A stretch of 64,000 bases of DNA from a virus (Duplodnaviria > Caudoviricetes): IMG/VR virus record IMGVR_UViG_3300014204_000120, positions 32,001 through 96,000 of that record. One strand, written 5' to 3'. Numbering within the stretch: the stretch's first letter is position 1; each line of letters begins with the position of its first letter. A program made the translations under genes and the position numbers. Positions 4,172 to 13,493 of this stretch are shown here, piece by piece. Below the pieces are notes generated by a model. It made no database searches, was not told the DNA's origin, and saw only the letters and a program-made list of their open reading frames with translations.

Positions 4172-4552
4172 ATGATCAGGGAACTTTCTGACAATTGGGC
4201 GTATGATATAGCTAAAAATCCTATTTCTAATGGTGAAATTAAAGATGTTGAAGTTATTAACCAATCCATAGAAATGATTTTAGGTATTGCTCCAGGAGAA
4301 AGACTATTTAATACTTCATTTGGATTAGGTCTACAAAATCGTATTTTTAATATAGCTTCTCCAGAAGAAGGTGAATCTATTTTAGACCAAATATCTGAAG
4401 CTATTAAAACTTGGGAAGATAGAATTACGTTGGTGGAAAGTCAAATGCAAATTAAAATAGAACCTGATAATAATATGATAATACTTATAATTCCTTATAT
4501 TATCAAACGCAATAGAATAAAAAGCGTCTTCCAAAAGAAAATCTACGGATAA
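4172..4552 (+). CDS. gp25: Baseplate wedge subunit, gp25-like
   Basis: INQSIEMIL...PGERLFNTSFG...AIKTWEDRI signature; precedes the gp6-like gene. Confidence 0.85.
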   Translation: MIRELSDNWAYDIAKNPISNGEIKDVEVINQSIEMILGIAPGERLFNTSFGLGLQNRIFNIASPEEGESILDQISEAIKTWEDRITLVESQMQIKIEPDNNMIILIIPYIIKRNRIKSVFQKKIYG

Positions 4553-4564
4553 TGAGGTTATAGA

Positions 4565-7183
4565 ATGGCAACTAATTTTTTAAAGTACACATCGTTAACT
4601 TATGACTCAATTCTGCAACAAATAACAGATAAGTTTAATTCAGACTCTAGATTTGCTAACTTTAGACAATCTGCTATCGCTTCTCTTATGGCTGAAATAT
4701 TTGCCGGCGTTGCAGACTTAGTTAACTATAATTTAGAAAGACGAGCCGAGGAAGCCTTTTTAGACACAGCCAAACTTAAAAGTTCGGTTATTCTACTTTC
4801 CCGTATGCTTGGTTATGTAATGCAAAGACCAATTCCTGCTTCGGCTACTTTAAAAATTAAATTGAAAGGTGACTTTAGTTCCATTATTAGTACTACAGAT
4901 AAATTACAAATACCTTTACAATCATCATTTAGTTATGGTGGTTATAAATTTATTTTAAAGAAAACACTAATAATTAATCTTTCATCATACGTAGACGCAA
5001 TGATATTAGACGGCGCTGCTTATGAATCAGACTATATTACTGTAGACCAAAATAATGATGCTATTGATATCATTCAAGGCGAAATTAAAGAAAAAGTAAT
5101 TGAAGGATCTACTAACCCTCTAATTGGATCCACATTCCAAGTCTATAAAATTGATGATACAGAATTTAGTAACATGTATGGCTCTGAAGACTACGATAAT
5201 CCTGTTACTAGAATTTGGATAGGCGATAATAAATCAACAGATAACGAATATACAATTGATAGAAGGTCTCTTATAAACTGGGAAGTCATTGAAGCGTTCT
5301 CAGATCAAGAAAATATTAAAGTCGCCGTAGTTAGATCTGCTATTAATGAAGGTGTAGAATTACTTTTTGGTAACGGTAGATATGCTAGTGATGGTGTGAA
5401 CTATACTACATCCGGTGGTGCTATAACTTCATATGATAATTTATACGTTCAATACTTAGCTACTAAAGGTTTTAAAGCTAATCAATCAGGCGTTGTTGAT
5501 AAAAAAGTAACATATAGTGGTAGAGTTTATACTAATACCGGAAAGGATATCACAAACAAAGTTGATTTTTATTTTGCTACTAATATAGTTGGTGGCGCTG
5601 ATGCTGAAAGTCTAGAATCTATTAAGTATAACTCACCAGGAATCTTTGCGGCATTAGATCGATGCGTAACAAAGGATGATTATGTAAACTATTTAAAATC
5701 ATTAACTTCTCCTATTAGTATTAAAAATGCTATTGCTTTTGGAGAAGCTGAAGAACTAAACTCTGATACAGGTCGTGATGCAGTTATTCGCCTATTTAAT
5801 GTAGTCCTATTCTCAGTCTTAGGTCATTTATACCAAGTTAATACTTCACCATATTACTATTATACTAAAGAAAATGGTTTGGATAATAACGTACTAGACT
5901 CAAACTTTAATATAGACGATATATCTTACTGGAACTATTTTAATGTGTTTGTTAAAGGAGATACAGAAAGCCTAACAGCTAACTCCCAAATAGTAAGACA
6001 ACTAAAAGAATATACAACATCAGCATTCCAATATAAAATCTATGGTCACGAAATAGATGATACTACTGGCGCATACTATAGTACAAACTACGGTGAAAAT
6101 TTAACTTTATACATCAGCTATACTACAGACGATTCATCTTATAATACAAGTCTAAGCGCTGATACTTCTATTACTGTTGACGTTAGAAGTTTGTCATCTA
6201 AATCAAACGATACCGACGCAATGGAAACTCTAGCATCTCTAATCCAAACTCAACTATTATTAGTCACCGATACTCGCGGTTCTAACACAACAGAAAATAC
6301 ACACTATAATCAAACGGCATTCCCTAACGTTACTGTTACATACGATTCAACAGATAAAGACCTGACTATAGCTTTTGGACAGAATACACCATGTTATATT
6401 GACGAATTTACTAGCGCTACAGGTGCTTCTGATTTAGGACTAAGAATACTATCAGGAACTGCAGCCGTTGGACCTGACGCAGTACTTGTATCTCTGACTA
6501 ATAACCTAAGTCAGAATATAATCAGCGTGGTAGATAAGTTGGACACAAGAGCGCAAATCACAACCAGACCAATATATCTATCAAGTATTATTGAAAAAAT
6601 TAAAATTACTGGTGTGGTAAAAATAAACAGCCTTTATGATACAGAAACTGAAAGAACTAATTTTTATGATGCAATATACAAATGGGCAGATACAACAGCA
6701 GATTTTAAAATTAATCTTTATAAAAGTTCTGTCATAGAAATTATTGAACAGTTTACATCTGTTAAATATACAAATATAAATTTTGAGGCGGATTATCCTA
6801 CACCAGTTAGTACATCAGCATTTTATATAACGGGTGCTAATAAATGGGTTAATAATGGATTTAGTAATAATGCTCAAAAATTATATGCTTATAATTTAAT
6901 TGATCAAAAGATTAATGATTTTTTGGTAGACGAATCTTTGATAACGAAAAGATATTTTTTGGTAACTTTTGCTAAAAATTTATATAATGCTTTTAAAAAT
7001 TTGGGCGGAAATTATGCTACGTTTGTTGATACCATTAATTTTAATAATCTAATTTCTGATATTAATAAAGATTATATTTATATAATGAGAACTAATATGT
7101 TAGATGACGATGGTAATATTACTGAATATTCACTTCCAAATCAAATAGTACAGTTAATATGTAATTTAAATATTGAGTATTAA
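4565..7183 (+). CDS. gp6: Baseplate wedge subunit, gp6-like
   Basis: EAFLDTAKLKSSV...LGY, LLFGNG, GGADAESLESIKYNSP...RCVTKDDY. Confidence 0.85.
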   Translation: MATNFLKYTSLTYDSILQQITDKFNSDSRFANFRQSAIASLMAEIFAGVADLVNYNLERRAEEAFLDTAKLKSSVILLSRMLGYVMQRPIPASATLKIKLKGDFSSIISTTDKLQIPLQSSFSYGGYKFILKKTLIINLSSYVDAMILDGAAYESDYITVDQNNDAIDIIQGEIKEKVIEGSTNPLIGSTFQVYKIDDTEFSNMYGSEDYDNPVTRIWIGDNKSTDNEYTIDRRSLINWEVIEAFSDQENIKVAVVRSAINEGVELLFGNGRYASDGVNYTTSGGAITSYDNLYVQYLATKGFKANQSGVVDKKVTYSGRVYTNTGKDITNKVDFYFATNIVGGADAESLESIKYNSPGIFAALDRCVTKDDYVNYLKSLTSPISIKNAIAFGEAEELNSDTGRDAVIRLFNVVLFSVLGHLYQVNTSPYYYYTKENGLDNNVLDSNFNIDDISYWNYFNVFVKGDTESLTANSQIVRQLKEYTTSAFQYKIYGHEIDDTTGAYYSTNYGENLTLYISYTTDDSSYNTSLSADTSITVDVRSLSSKSNDTDAMETLASLIQTQLLLVTDTRGSNTTENTHYNQTAFPNVTVTYDSTDKDLTIAFGQNTPCYIDEFTSATGASDLGLRILSGTAAVGPDAVLVSLTNNLSQNIISVVDKLDTRAQITTRPIYLSSIIEKIKITGVVKINSLYDTETERTNFYDAIYKWADTTADFKINLYKSSVIEIIEQFTSVKYTNINFEADYPTPVSTSAFYITGANKWVNNGFSNNAQKLYAYNLIDQKINDFLVDESLITKRYFLVTFAKNLYNAFKNLGGNYATFVDTINFNNLISDINKDYIYIMRTNMLDDDGNITEYSLPNQIVQLICNLNIEY

Positions 7184-7193
7184 GATATTTTAA

Positions 7194-7294
7194 TATAAAT
7201 AATGGTAGAAAGTTGGGACAGCCACAAATGGTTTTCTAACCCCAATTTAGAATTACCTTCTTTCTACTATTAAAAAACCTTATTGGGAGGTTTT
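7194..7294 (+). promoter_or_regulatory. Late promoter plus structured 5' UTR with RBS-sequestering hairpin
   Basis: TATAAATA at 7194; 7201-7212 pairs with 7260-7271; AAAACCT (7274-7280) pairs with AGGTTTT (7288-7294), covering GGAGG. Confidence 0.6.
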
Positions 7295-8432
7295 GATGTG
7301 TAAAAAATTAACTAAAGAAGAATTTATTGAACGATCAAAAAAAATTCACGGTAATAAATACGATTATAGTTTAGTAGATTATATTAATAATAATACTAAA
7401 GTTAAAATTATTTGTTTAAAATGTAATAAAATATTTGAACAAACACCAAATAATCATTTAAATGGTAAGGGTTGTAAAAAATGTAGAAAAACTAAGCACA
7501 AAATGTCAACAATTGAATTTATTGCAAGAGTAAAAGAGATTTGGGGTGATGTTTATGATTATAATTTGGTAGAATATAATAATTTAAACGATAATATTAA
7601 AATTATATGTAAGATTCATGGAGTGTTTAAACAAAAACCTAAAGATCATCTTAGAGGTTGCGGTTGTAGACAATGTGGTATAGATAAAACTAGAAAATTA
7701 AAAATAATGTCATGGGATGATGTTTTAACAAAGTTTAAAAAAATTTATGGTAATGAATATGATTATAGTGAATCTGTGTATCTTTCAATGAATTATCCGA
7801 TTGCTATAATTTGTAAAAATCATGGAATTTTTTATATGTTGCCTAAATATCATTTACATAATGGTGGATGTCCAAAATGCTCAAGACAAAAAATGATAAT
7901 TACAAAAACCAAAAAAATAGAAAATGTTTTATTAGATTTTCGAAATGTTCATGGTGATAATTATGATTATAGTCAGGTTGAATATATTAATAGTAGAACT
8001 AAAATTAAAATTATATGTAAAAAACACGGGATATTTGAACAAACACCAAACAATCATTTAAGAGGTGAATGTTGTCCTAAATGTAAAATATCATTAGGAG
8101 AAAATAAAATATTAATTTGGTTAAATAAAAATAAAATAAAATTTGAACAGCAGAAAGAATTTGATGGTTGTCAATGTAAATTTAATTTAAAATTTGATTT
8201 TTATTTATCAGATTATAATATCTGTATTGAATATGATGGAGGATTACATTTTAAACCTGTTGAATATTTTGGTGGTGAAGAAGCACACGAAAAAACTAAA
8301 ATGAGAGATCAAATAAAAAATGATTATTGTAAAAATAATAATATTAAACTATTTAGGATACCATATTGGAAATTTAATGATATAAATTATATTTTAAAGA
8401 ATATAATAGAAGAAGCAAAAAACTTTTTTTGA
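7293..8432 (+). CDS. Free-standing homing endonuclease-like protein (tandem Zn-binding repeats plus PD-(D/E)XK/Vsr-like nuclease); likely start 7296
   Basis: Four repeats of HG.xYDYS.V.Y...IIC..HG.F.Q.P..HL.G.GC..C; C-terminal FDFYL...IEYDGGLHF...KLFRIPY. Confidence 0.8.
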   Translation: MMCKKLTKEEFIERSKKIHGNKYDYSLVDYINNNTKVKIICLKCNKIFEQTPNNHLNGKGCKKCRKTKHKMSTIEFIARVKEIWGDVYDYNLVEYNNLNDNIKIICKIHGVFKQKPKDHLRGCGCRQCGIDKTRKLKIMSWDDVLTKFKKIYGNEYDYSESVYLSMNYPIAIICKNHGIFYMLPKYHLHNGGCPKCSRQKMIITKTKKIENVLLDFRNVHGDNYDYSQVEYINSRTKIKIICKKHGIFEQTPNNHLRGECCPKCKISLGENKILIWLNKNKIKFEQQKEFDGCQCKFNLKFDFYLSDYNICIEYDGGLHFKPVEYFGGEEAHEKTKMRDQIKNDYCKNNNIKLFRIPYWKFNDINYILKNIIEEAKNFF

Positions 8433-8945
8433 TTATCTAGTCAGAACTATTTTATGATTATGTGTGATATTTTTGATAGCTCTACCACGTAAATCAAATG
8501 TATAACTAGTATTACTGAAACGGTTTATACGAACATTTTTATGTGATGGGATTATTGAACTAGACTGAAGACCTGAAAATTTTTCCCAGTTATCAAAATT
8601 TTCTGGTAGACTATCGACAATTTCAAGTAAAAAATTAGTTATAATATATCCATCTTTGTTAATCCAGATTTGACTGCTGGTGAAGTCAATAGCAAATGCA
8701 TTACACCAAAGACTATTAGTCAATGTCTGACCACTAATTATAGTTGCATCATTATTTTTAATTAGTGGTTTACTGTGGGGATAGTATTCATACCGGCAAG
8801 GATTTGGGAACGGGCAGACCTGAACTGAGTCATGCCAGTTTACATAACCGAGTTGTTTATCGCCAAAATTCATACACCAAGTCGTATCAGCTGCGAAACT
8901 GATACCAATGAACAGAAGCACGGTTGATACAATTTTCTTGAACAT
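8433..8945 (-). CDS. Secreted protein with signal peptide
   Basis: MFKKIVSTVLLFIGISFA-A signal peptide; RBS GAAAGGA; own consensus promoter; basic C-terminus YTFDLRGR. Confidence 0.7.
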   Translation of the reverse strand: MFKKIVSTVLLFIGISFAADTTWCMNFGDKQLGYVNWHDSVQVCPFPNPCRYEYYPHSKPLIKNNDATIISGQTLTNSLWCNAFAIDFTSSQIWINKDGYIITNFLLEIVDSLPENFDNWEKFSGLQSSSIIPSHKNVRINRFSNTSYTFDLRGRAIKNITHNHKIVLTR

Positions 8946-8986
8946 TGACTAATCCTTTCTTTAGGTTAATTTCCAATCGCAACCAT

Positions 8987-9015
8987 AATATACATCAGTT
9001 CAATGGATTTGTCAA
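8987..9015 (-). promoter_or_regulatory. sigma70-type promoter of the 170-aa gene
   Basis: TTGACA (9015-9010), 17 nt, TATATT (8992-8987). Confidence 0.8.
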
Positions 9016-9041
9016 GGTCAAAAATCAGAAAAAATCAATTG

Positions 9042-9375
9042 CAGTCCGTCCGCGCACGTGTGGAGTTTACCTCAGTTGAATCAAATAAAACTTCAGTCGT
9101 TGCAGTCCGTCCGCGCACGTGTGGAGTTTACTGTTTTATGTCTAGTACCCAAATTGCCAGATACAGTCCGTCCGCGCATGTGTGGAGTTTACGACAATAG
9201 AGCTGATGGTGTGTTGGAAAAAGACAGTCCGTCCGCGCATGTGTGGAGTTTACAAATTAACTTGTCATATTAAAAACAATAAAGGCAGTCCGTCCGCGCA
9301 TGTGTGGAGTTTACCAAAATCATAATAACTATTGAATTGGTCAAACCAGTCCGTCCGCGCATGTGTGGAGTTTAC
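9042..9375. CRISPR. CRISPR array: 6 repeats of 29 nt, 5 spacers of 32 nt
   Basis: CAGTCCGTCCGCGCAYGTGTGGAGTTTAC starts at 9042, 9103, 9164, 9225, 9286, 9347 (period 61); all spacers unique. Confidence 0.97.
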
Positions 9376-9603
9376 ACCAACCAGTTGTGGCGGAGTTTTA
9401 AAAATTCCACTATGTGTTGTATTTAAAGATATTTAAATAAAACGGTGCGGGTTAGTGAGTGGTATAATTAACCAATCAAATTAAGATTTGGTGAAGCTAA
9501 AATTATCCCTCACCTTTTGGCTAAGGACCTTAGCCAAGGCAATTAAATTAATAATTACCTATTCAAATATTTTATTAAAATGTCAAAGAACAATATATCA
9601 TCT
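9376..9603 (-). ncRNA. Putative tracrRNA/omega-like scaffold RNA and array leader
   Basis: No ORF; own promoter; perfect inverted repeat 9517-9537, hairpin 9471-9492, GTGAG/CTCAC long-range pairing, repeat-related segment 9382-9410. Confidence 0.6.
9581..9592 (-). promoter_or_regulatory. boxA-like antitermination element
   Basis: TGTTCTTTGACA, 10/12 identical to E. coli rrn boxA TGCTCTTTAACA, just after the predicted start site. Confidence 0.5.
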
Positions 9604-9609
9604 ATTAAT

Positions 9610-9638
9610 AATATAACATCTTCTTTTTTATAAATCAA
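9610..9638 (-). promoter_or_regulatory. sigma70-type promoter for the scaffold RNA/array
   Basis: TTGATT (9638-9633), 17 nt, TATATT (9615-9610) with extended -10 TG; overlaps the nuclease stop codon. Confidence 0.7.
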
Positions 9639-10917
9639 TGTTTGTTGAATTTGCAATATTAATAGCAGCATTTAAATCAGCGTTAATTTCATTGTTACAG
9701 TGTTTACATATAAACTTATCTTGAGAAAGACGATTATCTTTATCCACATATCCGCATTTAGAGCATGTTTGACTGGTATAAGCCGCTTTGATTGTAACAA
9801 CTTTTACGCCTTCTTTTTCAGCTTTATAAGTTATCATGCTTTGTAGTTGATAATATGGCCAGTGCATGAGAAGCATTGGTTTATTTTTAGAGATACCTGA
9901 TAGATTTTCAATTTTAATAATACCAGCATTGTTTTTGATTGCATAATTAATGATTTGTTTGCTAATGAAGTGATTATAACTGGTATGGAAATTAGATATA
10001 TTATTTCTTAGTCTATTTAGATTTTTCAGTTTCTTTTTTCTACCATGCCCTCCGCCAGCTCTGGCTATGCTTTTTTGTAATGATTTTCTGCGGTTATATA
10101 ATTGTATAGATGTTTTAATGTAATCTTCTTTGTTTCCAATAAAAATAGGATTTTCAGAGTTTTGTAAAGCACAAACGGCAGGATTAACCATACCTAAATC
10201 TACACCAACAACAATGTTTGAATCTAAATTATGTTCTTTAATTTTTTCAGATATAACTAGATTAAAAAATAAATCATTGTCTTTGAGTTGAATAGTAGAT
10301 GCACATGTTTTAATTTGAGAAATGTCATTAATATTTTCGTTTTCAATAATTTTATCAACAGTGTGTTTAATATTGGCAGGATCTTTACCAAATAATATAC
10401 CAAATTTTATAATTTCACCTTTTTTTATGTGCCAATTAAAATAATACTTATCATTTGTTTTTTCTAATTTAATAGATATTTGCGTTACTGGTAATGGCAT
10501 ATTTGCTTTAAATGAAGTTATTGATTTTTTTCCAATTTTAATTTCTCTAAAGTCACTTTTATATTTTTTATATACTGATGTTTTTAGTGTATTGGTTATA
10601 CTGGGTGGTAAATTAGGATACTTAGCTTTGACGTCGTGTTCGAATTGGGCTTCATCTTTAATACCAAAATGTTCAAAGAATTTTTCGCGTATTTTATTAA
10701 CTTCGTCTTTATCTTTTATATCAACATCATGTCGTGCTAATAATCGCTCCATCCATTGTTCATTAAATATAATTCCACCAATTATATAATTAGCAGCTCT
10801 AAACGAGTCATTAAATAATTGATATAATCGTTTCCATTGGGCATCCTTTTCCTCTTTAGAATCAGTTGCAACAAACAGTTTTAGTTTTAATACTCTGGTA
10901 TGCATTCCTTCAGTCAT
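9628..10917 (-). CDS. cas12f: Cas12f/TnpB-family RNA-guided nuclease (C2c10/AsCas12f1-like), about 429 aa, catalytic residues intact
   Basis: RuvC-I VGVDLG, RuvC-II IKIENL, Zn finger CSKC...CKHC, RuvC-III NADLNAA, and the GGHGRKKK motif as in AsCas12f1. ATG at 10917 follows RBS GAAAGGA (track start 10932). Adjacent to the array. Confidence 0.85.
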   Translation of the reverse strand: MTEGMHTRVLKLKLFVATDSKEEKDAQWKRLYQLFNDSFRAANYIIGGIIFNEQWMERLLARHDVDIKDKDEVNKIREKFFEHFGIKDEAQFEHDVKAKYPNLPPSITNTLKTSVYKKYKSDFREIKIGKKSITSFKANMPLPVTQISIKLEKTNDKYYFNWHIKKGEIIKFGILFGKDPANIKHTVDKIIENENINDISQIKTCASTIQLKDNDLFFNLVISEKIKEHNLDSNIVVGVDLGMVNPAVCALQNSENPIFIGNKEDYIKTSIQLYNRRKSLQKSIARAGGGHGRKKKLKNLNRLRNNISNFHTSYNHFISKQIINYAIKNNAGIIKIENLSGISKNKPMLLMHWPYYQLQSMITYKAEKEGVKVVTIKAAYTSQTCSKCGYVDKDNRLSQDKFICKHCNNEINADLNAAINIANSTNIDL

Positions 10918-10946
10918 AATATATCCTTTCAATAAATGTTAATATT

Positions 10947-10965
10947 AATATAACATTTTCTTTTT
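10947..10965 (-). promoter_or_regulatory. Extended -10 promoter of the nuclease gene
   Basis: AAAAGAAAATGTTATATT, same motif as at 9610, 30100 and 37960. Confidence 0.55.
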
Positions 10966-11083
10966 AAGAAGTTGTTTAATATTTCAAAAATATAAATACT
11001 TAGTGAGTTTATTCAAAGATATTTTAAATAATTCTTAGTTTAAGACTTTATAGAATATAATCATATCACATTGTTAAATCCGT

Positions 11084-11091
11084 TATAAATA
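11084..11091 (+). promoter_or_regulatory. T4-type late promoter (second copy at 10991)
   Basis: Exact TATAAATA 27 nt before the ATG, with RBS AGGAG. Confidence 0.75.
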
Positions 11092-11117
11092 CGTATATAG
11101 TTGTATAGGAGAAGTAA

Positions 11118-13493
11118 ATGTCAAAGTATTATGTAAAAATTAGTAATGCGTATGTATCAACAGGATTAGGAAGCACGTTTTCCCCGTTTACGTTTACACA
11201 GTTTGTAGACAGGTTATCATCAACTACGGTTTCTGATGAGTATTATGTTTCTGGAACGAGGATAATCAACACAGATTTATTAATGACAATTAGTGGTGCT
11301 ACATGTGTAATCAGTGCTTGGGGAGAGGATCCATATTACATTGTAGGTAATAGTGCTGATATATATTTTGCTATTGGGTCAAACAGTTTAAACATATATG
11401 ATATGATATTGGGATGCACATTATCAACAACGACTGAAGTTTTATTTGATTCGACTGAGGATGAAGCTAGGTCACAGAATTTAGTTATAGATAATTGTTA
11501 TATAAATTTAACTACGTATAATATTGGTTTTGAGGATTTTAATAGTGTAATAGTACGGAATTCTAATTTAGTTGCAGATAAAATAATAGGTCAGAACATA
11601 GTTAGTATGTCGTTTGTTAATGATATATTTGATGTTAGTGATATAGATTGTACAGAAGATAATGATGTTGATGTATTCACTTTGGATAATTGTGCGTTTA
11701 CAAGTGCTACGGCTGGATTTACAACGGATGATACAGATTGGACTAATGTACAGGAATTATGGGCAAGACCAGATGATATATTTAATGCAAGTGTTTCAGC
11801 AATTTCAGCTGATAGTTTTCATTATTTAAGTGCTGATTTTGGAACAATTACAATAAGTGGAGATACTGATTATACAAACACATGGTATAATGGAAGACGA
11901 GATGGTATAGGAAGTTTATATTTTCCAGCATTAAGTGGTGTAAGTGTTTCAGCATCGTTAGTATCAGCTGCACCAAATACAACCATTAGTTTTGTTTTGA
12001 GTGGTAATAATCCTTTTACAGTTTTTAGTGCAACGAGTGCTACATATTATTTTGATGATGAAAATACGTCCGCGGTAAATACAAATAGTACATTAGCGCA
12101 TATATATTCGGCTACAGATTATTATAATACTAGTGCTGTTATGATTTCTAAAAATAGTTGGTATACAGTTACAACACCAGTCCAAGTTATATTAGTAGGA
12201 GCATTTACAGTTATAATAAAGGTATATGATGCTTTTGGAAATGATAAGACTGGTGGAGTATTAAGACCTTTATCATATGTATCAGTTTCAGCAAGTGCTA
12301 ATGGATATGATGGTATAGATAGTTATGTATGGGATTTTGGAGATGCTACTGGTAGTGTTCCAGTTTCAGGTATAACTAATCCTGATAATACATATTATAT
12401 TGGATTAGGAATGAAGACTATATCTTTAACTGCTCATGCTGTAGAAGAAACATTCTCTGCAACAGCAAATACAACATTAGGAATATCAGCTTTAACAAGT
12501 GCTTATTATGTTAATATAACTTCAGCTTATGATGCTAATACTGGTAATATAGGAACATTAGCTGATCCATATAATTGGGATGAATTTAAAACTAGAGTTG
12601 AATCGTTTGTAAGTGCAGATTATAGTGATACATATTATTTAAGTGGAAGTAGAAAATTAACACAACCTACAACAGGTCAAAATGTATTAGCTATAAATTC
12701 GTTGAAAAATTTAACTATTGACTGTTGGGAGAATTCAGCAACGCATGGAGCTCCTTGGTTGCTTGAAATAGAAGACTGGACAACGACAAATGCTAATTCG
12801 ATATTATCGGCAGTCGGAACAACATTAAAGAATGGTATAATTTATAATAAGAGATATATTTCTCCTGGTTATGGTGGAACATTAAAGATAACTAATGTAT
12901 ATGATATGTTTATAGTTTATCAAGGTACATATGCTGGAATAGAAATAGACCCTTGGAACTTTGTATTATATTGTGGTGGTACATGTGGTGTAGTAATGCC
13001 AAGTGCGGATTCAAATATTATAGGAAGTACTTTATATTTAAGTGGAAATGGATTTACTGATAATTTTGTTGTAGGAGATTATTCAGAAATATATTTACCA
13101 GCGACTCAACAAACAGGATATAATTTAGATTTAATAGATTCTGTTTTTGTTAATTTAGATTTAGAAGATTCTAATTATTTCAGTGCTGCTGATGTATATA
13201 TTAGAAATAGTACTTTTAATAGAGCTTCTAGTGCTATTGAAGCAGATTTTGATATATCAGCTAATGATGATAGTCAGTTTGGTTGGTCTCCACCCGTTAG
13301 TTATCCGTTTACACCAAGTCATAGGTTATATGATAAAAATATAGAGTATGTGATATTAAAGAAGGGAGACTTAGTACCGTTTAGTGATATTGATATGCCG
13401 CCTAATCCGGGCTATGGAGCTTCGGCATATTCTGAATATGATACTGGCTTGTGGGGTTATGCTAGAAATCAATATAATACAAGTGCGAGTTAA
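11118..13493 (+). CDS. Virion (baseplate/fibre-associated) protein with beta-helix-like modules and PKD domains
   Basis: Acidic, S/T-rich; SYVWDFGD PKD motif; two YYV...G.GT..DP(F/Y) modules; late promoter. Confidence 0.65.
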   Translation: MSKYYVKISNAYVSTGLGSTFSPFTFTQFVDRLSSTTVSDEYYVSGTRIINTDLLMTISGATCVISAWGEDPYYIVGNSADIYFAIGSNSLNIYDMILGCTLSTTTEVLFDSTEDEARSQNLVIDNCYINLTTYNIGFEDFNSVIVRNSNLVADKIIGQNIVSMSFVNDIFDVSDIDCTEDNDVDVFTLDNCAFTSATAGFTTDDTDWTNVQELWARPDDIFNASVSAISADSFHYLSADFGTITISGDTDYTNTWYNGRRDGIGSLYFPALSGVSVSASLVSAAPNTTISFVLSGNNPFTVFSATSATYYFDDENTSAVNTNSTLAHIYSATDYYNTSAVMISKNSWYTVTTPVQVILVGAFTVIIKVYDAFGNDKTGGVLRPLSYVSVSASANGYDGIDSYVWDFGDATGSVPVSGITNPDNTYYIGLGMKTISLTAHAVEETFSATANTTLGISALTSAYYVNITSAYDANTGNIGTLADPYNWDEFKTRVESFVSADYSDTYYLSGSRKLTQPTTGQNVLAINSLKNLTIDCWENSATHGAPWLLEIEDWTTTNANSILSAVGTTLKNGIIYNKRYISPGYGGTLKITNVYDMFIVYQGTYAGIEIDPWNFVLYCGGTCGVVMPSADSNIIGSTLYLSGNGFTDNFVVGDYSEIYLPATQQTGYNLDLIDSVFVNLDLEDSNYFSAADVYIRNSTFNRASSAIEADFDISANDDSQFGWSPPVSYPFTPSHRLYDKNIEYVILKKGDLVPFSDIDMPPNPGYGASAYSEYDTGLWGYARNQYNTSAS
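11428..11459 (+). other. Protospacer matching array spacer 9071-9102 (31/32)
   Basis: CAACGACTGAAGTTTTATTTGATTCGACTGAG vs reverse complement of the spacer CAACGACTGAAGTTTTATTTGATTCAACTGAG. Confidence 0.95.

Follow-up and report, generated by a model that had tools for sequence, protein, structure and literature searches.

A Cas12f1-type nuclease with a tracrRNA-type scaffold and a type I-E-like CRISPR array in a T4-like phage: a candidate system aimed at sibling phages

The DNA considered here, referred to as the window, is a stretch of 64,000 nucleotides from a virus, positions 32001-96000 of the 137,849-bp IMG/VR record IMGVR_UViG_3300014204_000120, whose completeness is estimated by CheckV at about 53%. 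It carries a compact CRISPR cassette, made up of a gene for a Cas12f-type nuclease, a scaffold of the trans-activating CRISPR RNA (tracrRNA) type and an array of six repeats. The cassette is probably a working variant of subtype V-F1 (Cas12f1) that uses an array of type I-E design, sits in a hot spot of a T4-like phage and is aimed at sibling phages, a reading to which we give a probability of roughly 0.7. The argument is carried by the protein, by a scaffold that covaries with the repeats, and by a spacer whose target lies beside the cassette site in siblings that lack the cassette. Expression, cleavage, the identity of the protospacer adjacent motif (PAM), adaptation in trans and homing are matters that we infer from sequence.

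The phage is T4-like, and no near relative was found in INPHARED. The genes of the window are tightly packed and nearly all on the plus strand, including T4-type baseplate and structural genes. A minus-strand block at 8433-11117 holds the Cas12f open reading frame (ORF), 252 nt of non-coding DNA, the array and an ORF of 170 amino acids (aa). Gene (9628-10917), helper RNA scaffold (9433-9541) and array (9042-9375) follow one another in that order on the minus strand, with a linker or leader at 9376-9432 which, on reading its sequence, ends in TTGGT beside repeat 1. As in V-F1 systems, the array is adjacent to the gene, downstream of it and on its strand, with a gap of 252 nt. An earlier reading made from the letters of the window (the sequence-only reading) had described a phage-borne minimal class 2 system with no other cas genes and no tnpA in the 64 kb. 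Such a minimal class 2 system is indeed carried by the phage, and searches of the entire record, at its completeness of about 53%, found no Cas1, Cas2, Cas6e or Y1 TnpA. With a tracrRNA scaffold present, the system is not limited to protein and array. Nor is the absence of cas1/2/4 a special feature; it is rather the norm in the greater Cas12f branch, which generally lacks Cas1/2/4 (PMC10691335).

The nuclease ORF (10932-9628, minus strand) would encode 434 aa if started at the TTG at 10932. The likelier start, judged by the AAGGA Shine-Dalgarno sequence before it, is the ATG at 10917, giving 429 aa. The protein matches the Pfam family Cas12f1-like_TNB (PF07282) at 2.9e-24, together with OrfB_IS605. 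In NCBIfam it matches the guided_TnpB subfamily model at 1e-54, and the Cas12f2 and IS200 TnpB models stay below their cut-offs. A phmmer search of the PDB gives 8hr5 as the best match (E 3e-55), followed by 9nzo/9nzr, 8j3r/8j12/8j1j, 7wju and 8dzj. The ten best matches, from 3e-55 to 3e-41, are of the Cas12f type, save possibly the tenth, 9nzp (3.2e-41), which was deposited as a TnpB, and the next clearly TnpB-like entries follow at 7.5e-6 and 7e-5. We take 8hr5, 8j12/8j3r and 7wju/8dzj to be CnCas12f1, OsCas12f1 and AsCas12f1, respectively, of the former V-U3/C2c10 group. By these matches the protein is a member of the Cas12f1 (V-F1) family, with CnCas12f1 as the nearest solved structure, and it is nearer to characterised Cas12f1 effectors than to transposon TnpB. 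It has the split RuvC with a D-E-D triad and the C-terminal CxxC..CxxC zinc ribbon of V-F1 effectors, and its length lies in their range of 400-700 aa. When the protein is aligned with nine relatives, neither the triad (D245/E342/D419) nor any of the zinc-ribbon cysteines (C390/C393/C409/C412) varies, and the nuclease therefore looks intact. The features of an IS200/IS605 TnpB transposon are missing; there is no Y1 transposase and no transposon end, and the guide comes from an array. For RNA-guided cleavage of double-stranded DNA beside a 5' PAM by a homodimer, the one observation that would speak in favor is the carrier-specific change at PAM position -1, described below.

A second TnpB-like gene, the only other one in the record, lies about 10 kb before the window start (G000:C1:20672-21928; locus L264:556-1812) and adjoins a T4 baseplate gene. 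Its product of 418 aa matches OrfB_IS605 at 4.6e-21 and TNB at 3.1e-12, is only 28% identical to the Cas12f and aligns poorly with it in the zinc-ribbon region. No array was seen beside this gene.

The array consists of six 29-nt repeats, beginning at 9042, 9103, 9164, 9225, 9286 and 9347 with a period of exactly 61, and five 32-nt spacers, rather than the ~36-37-nt repeats and ~30-nt spacers of V-F1. In the sense of the gene strand the repeat reads GTAAACTCCACAC[A/G]TGCGCGGACGGACTG. Its layout, GT-AAA-CTCCAC-ACAT-GCGCGG-ACGGACTG, is that of type I-E with an 8-nt 3' tail; the tails of relatives include ATGGACG, ATGGGTCG and ATGAACC. The leader-proximal repeat is that at 9375-9347. The two distal repeats, at 9042 and 9103 (9070-9042 and 9131-9103), differ by one base from the other four, as is expected of a trailer. 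The minus-strand orientation of the array follows from its synteny with the scaffold in relatives, the I-E-type 3' tail of 8 nt, the distal position of the variant repeats and the logic of the protospacer. The order of gene, scaffold and array is the same in the related loci L097, L177, L178 and L260. Transcription of the repeat from the plus strand, suggested by hairpin pairing via G-U and by a similarity to the end of the AsCas12f repeat, was rejected on these same grounds. On the transcribed strand, the I-E hairpin stem keeps 4 of its 6 pairs and has two A-C mismatches; the lengths of repeat and spacer and the 3' tail are those of I-E. The 5' arm of this hairpin is not needed by a tracrRNA design, and it has drifted. 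Genes that define type I-E (Cascade, cas3, cas6e and cas1-cas2) are missing from the locus. No further copy of the repeat was found elsewhere in the 137,849-bp record, and a scan of IMG/VR with the repeat found nothing.

The linker between scaffold and repeat 1 holds a hairpin at about 9382-9421 (minus strand), the 3' arm of which is a degenerate copy of the 5' half of the repeat, the other arm being its complement. In L177, a full degenerate repeat abuts repeat 1. The TTGGT/GT junction at repeat 1 is common to L097, L258 and L260.

A conserved RNA is found on the gene strand beside every array of the clade described below and beside the classical V-F arrays. In the consensus of its scaffold, a 6-bp hairpin precedes AAGGGTGAGG...CACTCACYAAC, and a short CGCAC-like segment comes after that. 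In the window, stem 1 spans 9535-9519 with the loop GGTCCT at 9529-9524, stem 2 is formed by GGTGAG (9513-9508) and CTCAC(T) (9459-9454), and the anti-repeat segment CCCGCAC follows at 9451-9445. When 12 relatives are folded jointly by RNAalifold, both stems are recovered, and five of the six stem-1 pairs show compensatory changes. A covariance model of these 12, with the window excluded, has a single match in the 64 kb, at 9433-9541 on the minus strand, with 32.3 bits (E about 5e-12, the calibration being rough). No Rfam family was found in the cassette region.

The pairing between the stem-1 loop and the repeat end, a pseudoknot known from solved Cas12f guide RNAs, is seen from locus to locus. 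Loops and repeat tails are, for example, GTTGCA/TGCAAC in L098, GGCCCA/TGGGTC in L097, GGCTCA/TGAGTC in L260, AGTCCA/TGGAC in L177, GATTCA/TGAACC in L178 and GGTCCT/CGGACT in the window. With the register fixed, 55 of 60 positions pair, and none of 100,000 loop-versus-repeat permutations was as good (p<1e-5); within the I-E clade alone, counted in the same way, the figure is 38 of 42 (exact p 0.0008), and a looser test gave p 0.0012. Since the loop covaries with the repeat tail across loci, the array is linked to the nuclease, and the pseudoknot appears to be now re-tuned to the I-E-type tail. Additionally, the segment past stem 2 pairs with repeat nucleotides ~11-23, the 3' arm of the old hairpin. 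Here, too, there are compensatory changes (GCGC/GCGC in L178 versus GCAC/GTGC in L008, and TTGC/GCAG in L010), and an anti-repeat forms a stronger duplex with its cognate repeat than with a non-cognate one (exact p 0.016). Judged by sequence, the locus thus has the tracrRNA of V-F1, with its conserved scaffold and its pseudoknot to the repeat 3' end.

Relatives were sought by scanning viral, genome and metagenome collections and fetching the contigs. The closest protein is a fragment with 96% identity, and a group at 39-42% comes next; the 96%-identical copy is from another sample and has the same downstream RNA. Most relatives at 30-40% identity, many of them on viral contigs, adjoin classical V-F arrays with ~36-nt repeats and a period of 65-66. 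At L014/15, L097, L177, L178, L179, L260, L258, L008 and L010 the repeats are 28-29 nt with a central palindrome, the period 61-63 and the spacers 32-34 nt; repeats of the closest group are exemplified by GTGTTACCCGCACGCGCGGGGATGAACC and GTCGCGTCCACGCGTGCGGGGATGAGTCG. Counted as lineages, the window's locus and eight others, nine in all, have arrays of this type. A maximum likelihood tree of 72 proteins places the window protein, on a long branch, in a clade of nine rows (the window protein, L007, L008/9, L010-13, L014-16, L097, L177, L178 and L179) with an SH-aLRT (Shimodaira-Hasegawa-like approximate likelihood ratio test) support of 100; L258 and L260 were joined to the clade by sequence similarity. 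Wherever the flanks of a clade member can be seen, its array is I-E-like, and the other Cas12f1 clades have ~36-nt repeats; L007 and L259 end at most ~135 nt past the gene and are uninformative on the array. The context is bacterial for L097, L008 and L010, and L177-L179 are flanked by genes of the RecA family and of the SbcC/SbcD kind, an arrangement like that of T4-like recombination modules. By its place in the tree, the protein falls inside the Cas12f1 family as already known, in a subclade that swapped its array type. No description of a Cas12f1 clade with I-E-like arrays was found in the literature covered, a selection from the journals.

The remaining claims of the sequence-only reading can be set against these results. 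Its RuvC protein of ~429 aa with three acidic residues and a zinc finger is confirmed with the start at ATG 10917, the triad and the four cysteines, and the PDB matches to CnCas12f/AsCas12f-type structures agree with its C2c10/AsCas12f1 kind of effector. The six regular repeats with a 29+32 period stand, with their I-E layout on the gene strand, and relatives carry repeats that are far more canonically I-E-like. What it called a structured non-coding region between gene and array has proved to be a conserved structured RNA, and the tie that it drew between a class 2 effector and this array gains support from the covariation of loop and repeat tail. Homologs that never sit next to arrays would have spoken against it; the linkage of nuclease and array holds across the clade. 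As a new event, the recruitment of a TnpB into a Cas12 role that it inferred has to be given up, as the tree nests the protein in a Cas12f1 subclade.

Some related loci depart from the common layout. L178 carries scaffold and array twice, on both sides of cas12f (2720-2990 and 4310-4830), with identical scaffolds. Upstream of the gene, L008 and L258 have a scaffold with a single repeat, a single spacer and a degenerate repeat. L058 (3743-5740; 154 kb) and L059 (86 kb), large viral contigs from IMG/VR, have a more distant TnpB/Cas12f-like gene of 475 aa, then a strong TTGACA-17-TATAGT site, a long structured non-coding stretch and five canonical I-E-like repeats (GTCTCCCCCGCGTGTGCGGGGATGGACC, period 61). 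Lying elsewhere in the tree, they are possibly a second case, an independent capture of an I-E-type array.

The distal, oldest spacer (9071-9102) matches the record itself at 11428-11459 on the plus strand, in 31 of 32 positions with an E of 4e-11 in this genome. The target gene is a structural gene of 791 aa that starts 186 nt beyond cas12f. A scan of IMG/VR with the 791-aa protein found nothing. Its 90%-identity cluster holds four full-length alleles, and contigs were recovered for two of them: L266, with 97% nucleotide identity over the gene, and L267/L268, with 91%. The flanks of the cassette align to L266 at 89-97% over three blocks and to L267/L268 at 86-96%. All three sibling contigs share both flanks and lack window positions 9018 to ~11083/11106. 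What occupies the cassette site is a DNA methyltransferase gene with a 420-aa ORF in L266, and only a 72-aa zinc-ribbon ORF in L267/L268. The flanks being shared and the insert absent, the cassette (9018-11106) is a variable insert in a phage hot spot.

The guide matches L266 in 31 of 32 positions and L267/L268 in 30 of 32, and its nucleotides 1-25 are perfect in the window and in all three siblings. The base 5' of the protospacer is G in the siblings (TCAG/CAACG...) and A in the carrier (TCAA/CAACG...), so that the flank at 11425-11427 is CAA here and CAG there. This contrast suggests a G-containing, I-E-like PAM and self-immunity conferred by the CAA flank. The G-to-A change, at 11427, makes Ala104Thr, and the fourth allele, P0124 (785 of 791 residues identical), also has Thr104, at the protein level. 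The target lies ~320-345 bp from the cassette edge, and a random site would fall so close in 138 kb with a probability of ~0.5%. With the repeat in the opposite orientation, the seed would be mismatched in every genome and no flank difference would be left.

Taken together, a working scheme can be proposed. The minus strand would encode the Cas12f, then the tracrRNA, then the array. The tracrRNA would bind each repeat twice, once by its anti-repeat with nucleotides ~14-21 and once by the stem-1 loop pseudoknot with nucleotides 23-28. The Cas12f, presumably a dimer like its solved relatives, would use the first ~20 nucleotides of the spacer and cut beside a 5' PAM, probably one with a G at -1, which resembles the AAG of type I-E. 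Repeat length, spacer length, orientation and PAM side are all those of type I-E, which makes insertion in trans by the Cas1-Cas2 of a host I-E system the most likely source of new spacers. In type I and type V systems alike, the PAM is read on the non-target strand, on its 5' side, so spacers from an I-E Cas1-Cas2 would be usable as inserted. The oldest guide would target the structural gene beside the cassette in the cassette-free siblings, with the carrier's own copy spared by the G-to-A change in the PAM.

The cassette would on this scheme serve competition between related phages, and a cut near the insertion site could also copy it by recombinational repair. In such a homing element, which we consider possible and rather doubtful, the founding spacer would direct a cut in the sibling gene at a distance of ~0.35 kb from where the cassette inserts. 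In a co-infected cell, repair that draws on the carrier genome would then copy the cassette, along with the PAM-immune allele, into the sibling, with the host I-E Cas1-Cas2 adding further guides. Homing is the native role of TnpB. Exclusion of siblings without gene conversion is at least as likely as homing.

A number of observations weigh against a working system of this kind. Only one of the five spacers matches anything, and the proposed PAM has a single site behind it; the other four spacers have no match in the record or in IMG/VR, and the fifth has none in IMG/VR either. Among related loci, no protospacers were found for the spacers in the sequences examined. Nucleotide 26 of the guide is mismatched to every sampled allele (a synonymous TCA/TCG difference). 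Window-specific substitutions occupy 37 of the 2376 sites of the 791-aa gene, so that the chance of one at a given site is ~1.6%, which makes the change at 11427 suggestive and not decisive. The anti-repeat contact in the window is weak, at 4-7 bp. A duplex test of the whole linker against the repeat did no better than shuffles in the window, by a method without power that also failed in several classical loci. A promoter scan gave sites no more numerous than in shuffles. Lastly, cas genes may lie elsewhere in a phage of which the record holds about 53%.

A short array, four spacers that lack a target, a weak local anti-repeat and a long branch in the tree would also fit a decaying, inactive relic, with the spacer match and the flank difference due to chance. 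A relic is nevertheless unlikely. The reading frame is intact with all catalytic and zinc residues, five of the six repeats are identical save for the one base change shared by the two distal ones, and the scaffold still reaches 32 bits against a model of distant relatives. The 96%-identical copy elsewhere retains the same downstream RNA, and a spacer match with an E of 4e-11 in the genome is a poor candidate for chance.

The array could instead be a phage mini-array feeding a host I-E Cascade, with the Cas12f-like gene as an unrelated TnpB-type passenger using a guide of its own. It is well established that viruses can carry arrays which depend on the Cas proteins of the host, no I-E genes would be needed in the phage, and both the 8-nt 3' tail and the geometry of repeats and spacers resemble those of I-E. 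We hold this to be very unlikely, given that loop and anti-repeat of the tracrRNA change together with the repeat from locus to locus, that nuclease and array stay linked through the whole clade in bacterial and phage contexts, that the two A-C mismatches in the I-E hairpin make recognition by Cas6e doubtful, and that there is no transposon end or TnpA. The array may nonetheless be used by both a host I-E system and the Cas12f. Least probable of all is that the self-matching guide regulates the phage's own 791-aa gene by binding and not cutting. The guide does match that gene in 31 of 32 positions, on the coding (non-target) strand, but the catalytic triad is intact, and the sole carrier-specific difference by the target falls on the PAM side, fitting avoidance of the carrier's own copy. 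A working V-F1 variant aimed at siblings remains the preferred reading.

The surroundings of the cassette offer further observations. The 170-aa ORF (8433-8945, minus strand), 3' of the array on the same strand, has a hydrophobic N-terminus and is kept in the cassette-free siblings; it belongs to the backbone and not to the cassette. A near-consensus TTGACA-17-TATATT promoter-like site lies at 9015-8987 on the minus strand, 27 nt past the last repeat. Within the 791-aa gene, window positions 11188-11214 (codons 24-31) hold eleven window-specific substitutions in 27 nt relative to L266, L267 and P0124. This patch, 80-105 nt from the cassette edge, is matched by no spacer; escape from another nuclease may account for it, or it may be a tract of conversion. 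The insert of L266 (3353-5469 of JAQUND010000024.1, binned as Candidatus Nanoarchaeia) encodes an N6/N4 DNA methyltransferase (1.2e-40) and the 420-aa ORF, which has no Pfam match; together they possibly form a restriction-modification pair. Although the bin label is archaeal, the DNA of this contig is clearly that of a phage. The gene just upstream of the hot spot, at 7293-8432 (plus strand; L267:1660-3165), has repeated treble-clef zinc-finger modules (DUF4379) and a C-terminus that, by eye, is like a Vsr/PD-(D/E)xK nuclease. In the siblings it encodes 501 aa with a match to DUF723 and a weak one to DUF2726 (E 0.0077, below the Pfam cut-off). From these domains, it looks like a homing-endonuclease-type gene, and the region like one that collects selfish nucleases.

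An established class 2 family, Cas12f1 with its tracrRNA, has here exchanged its native array for a class 1 design of type I-E and re-tuned its tracrRNA accordingly, giving a natural comparative view of guide-module swapping. If the proposed scheme is right, it would also show a route by which effector-only phage systems stay adaptive by borrowing host I-E adaptation, as has been proposed for Cas12r and type IV-A3 plasmids. Miniature editors would gain in target range from a nuclease of 429 aa whose PAM is probably G-containing and not T-rich. The sibling comparison is a rare natural case in which the target, a PAM-side immunity allele and the presence or absence of the cassette can be read together, and it makes kin exclusion or RNA-guided homing directly testable. 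Should homing hold, a CRISPR system would be acting as a programmable homing endonuclease, the ancestral TnpB lifestyle re-created in a virus.

Among known systems, the V-F1 Cas12f1 effectors (CnCas12f1, 8HR5; OsCas12f1, 8J12/8J3R; AsCas12f1, 7WJU/8DZJ) are alike in their RuvC and zinc-ribbon effector of 400-500 aa, the absence of adaptation genes, the tracrRNA between gene and array and the pseudoknot of the stem-1 loop with the repeat 3' end, with E values from 1e-42 to 3e-55. The present system differs from them in its 29-nt repeats, 32-nt spacers and I-E layout, against ~36-nt repeats and ~30-nt spacers, in a likely G-at-(-1) PAM against T-rich or C-rich ones, and in being carried in the structural module of a T4-like phage. 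With the I-E arrays of E. coli and Thermus thermophilus it shares the 29-nt repeat, 32-33-nt spacer, central palindrome and 8-nt tail, ACGGACTG here and ATAAACCG in E. coli; the repeat of the relative L178 matches that of E. coli at 23 of 28 positions by hand count. Unlike those systems, no Cas6e or Cas1-Cas2 was found, there is no Cascade or Cas3 in the record, and the stem has decayed on its 5' arm, with the 3' arm and tail kept and pairing with the tracrRNA. TnpB homing in IS200-IS605 elements and the T4 homing endonucleases are similar in that the target, in genomes without the element, lies a few hundred bp from the site of the nuclease's own gene and the carrier is spared by a site difference. 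In the present case, a CRISPR spacer defines the target, neither a transposase nor a transposon end is present, and homing is a proposed role. As for adaptation in trans, the type IV-A3 study of in-trans spacer acquisition reportedly relied on a host I-E module. That study is cited in PMC12669027.

The nearest precedent is Cas12r-CRISPR, found in the Lalka phages of Thermus, in which a type V effector encoded by the phage goes with an I-E-like array; it was described in April 2026 (bioRxiv 10.64898/2026.04.20.719267), and the idea of such a pairing is thus already published. Its authors propose that the adaptation module of the host's I-E system loads the array, with the argument that spacers so inserted suit a type V effector unchanged, and that Cas12r takes part in conflicts among mobile elements (10.64898/2026.04.20.719267). 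By that description the present system is set apart: Cas12r has 564 aa, belongs to another (thermophile) TnpB branch, lacks a tracrRNA, has its array 15 bp past the gene and targets integrative elements, whereas the nuclease here has 429 aa, a tracrRNA and an array 252 nt past the gene. The two are nonetheless alike in a small type V effector within a structural gene cluster, 29-bp repeats like those of host I-E arrays, spacers of 31-33 nt, an ARG PAM that overlaps the I-E AAG, and no adaptation genes.

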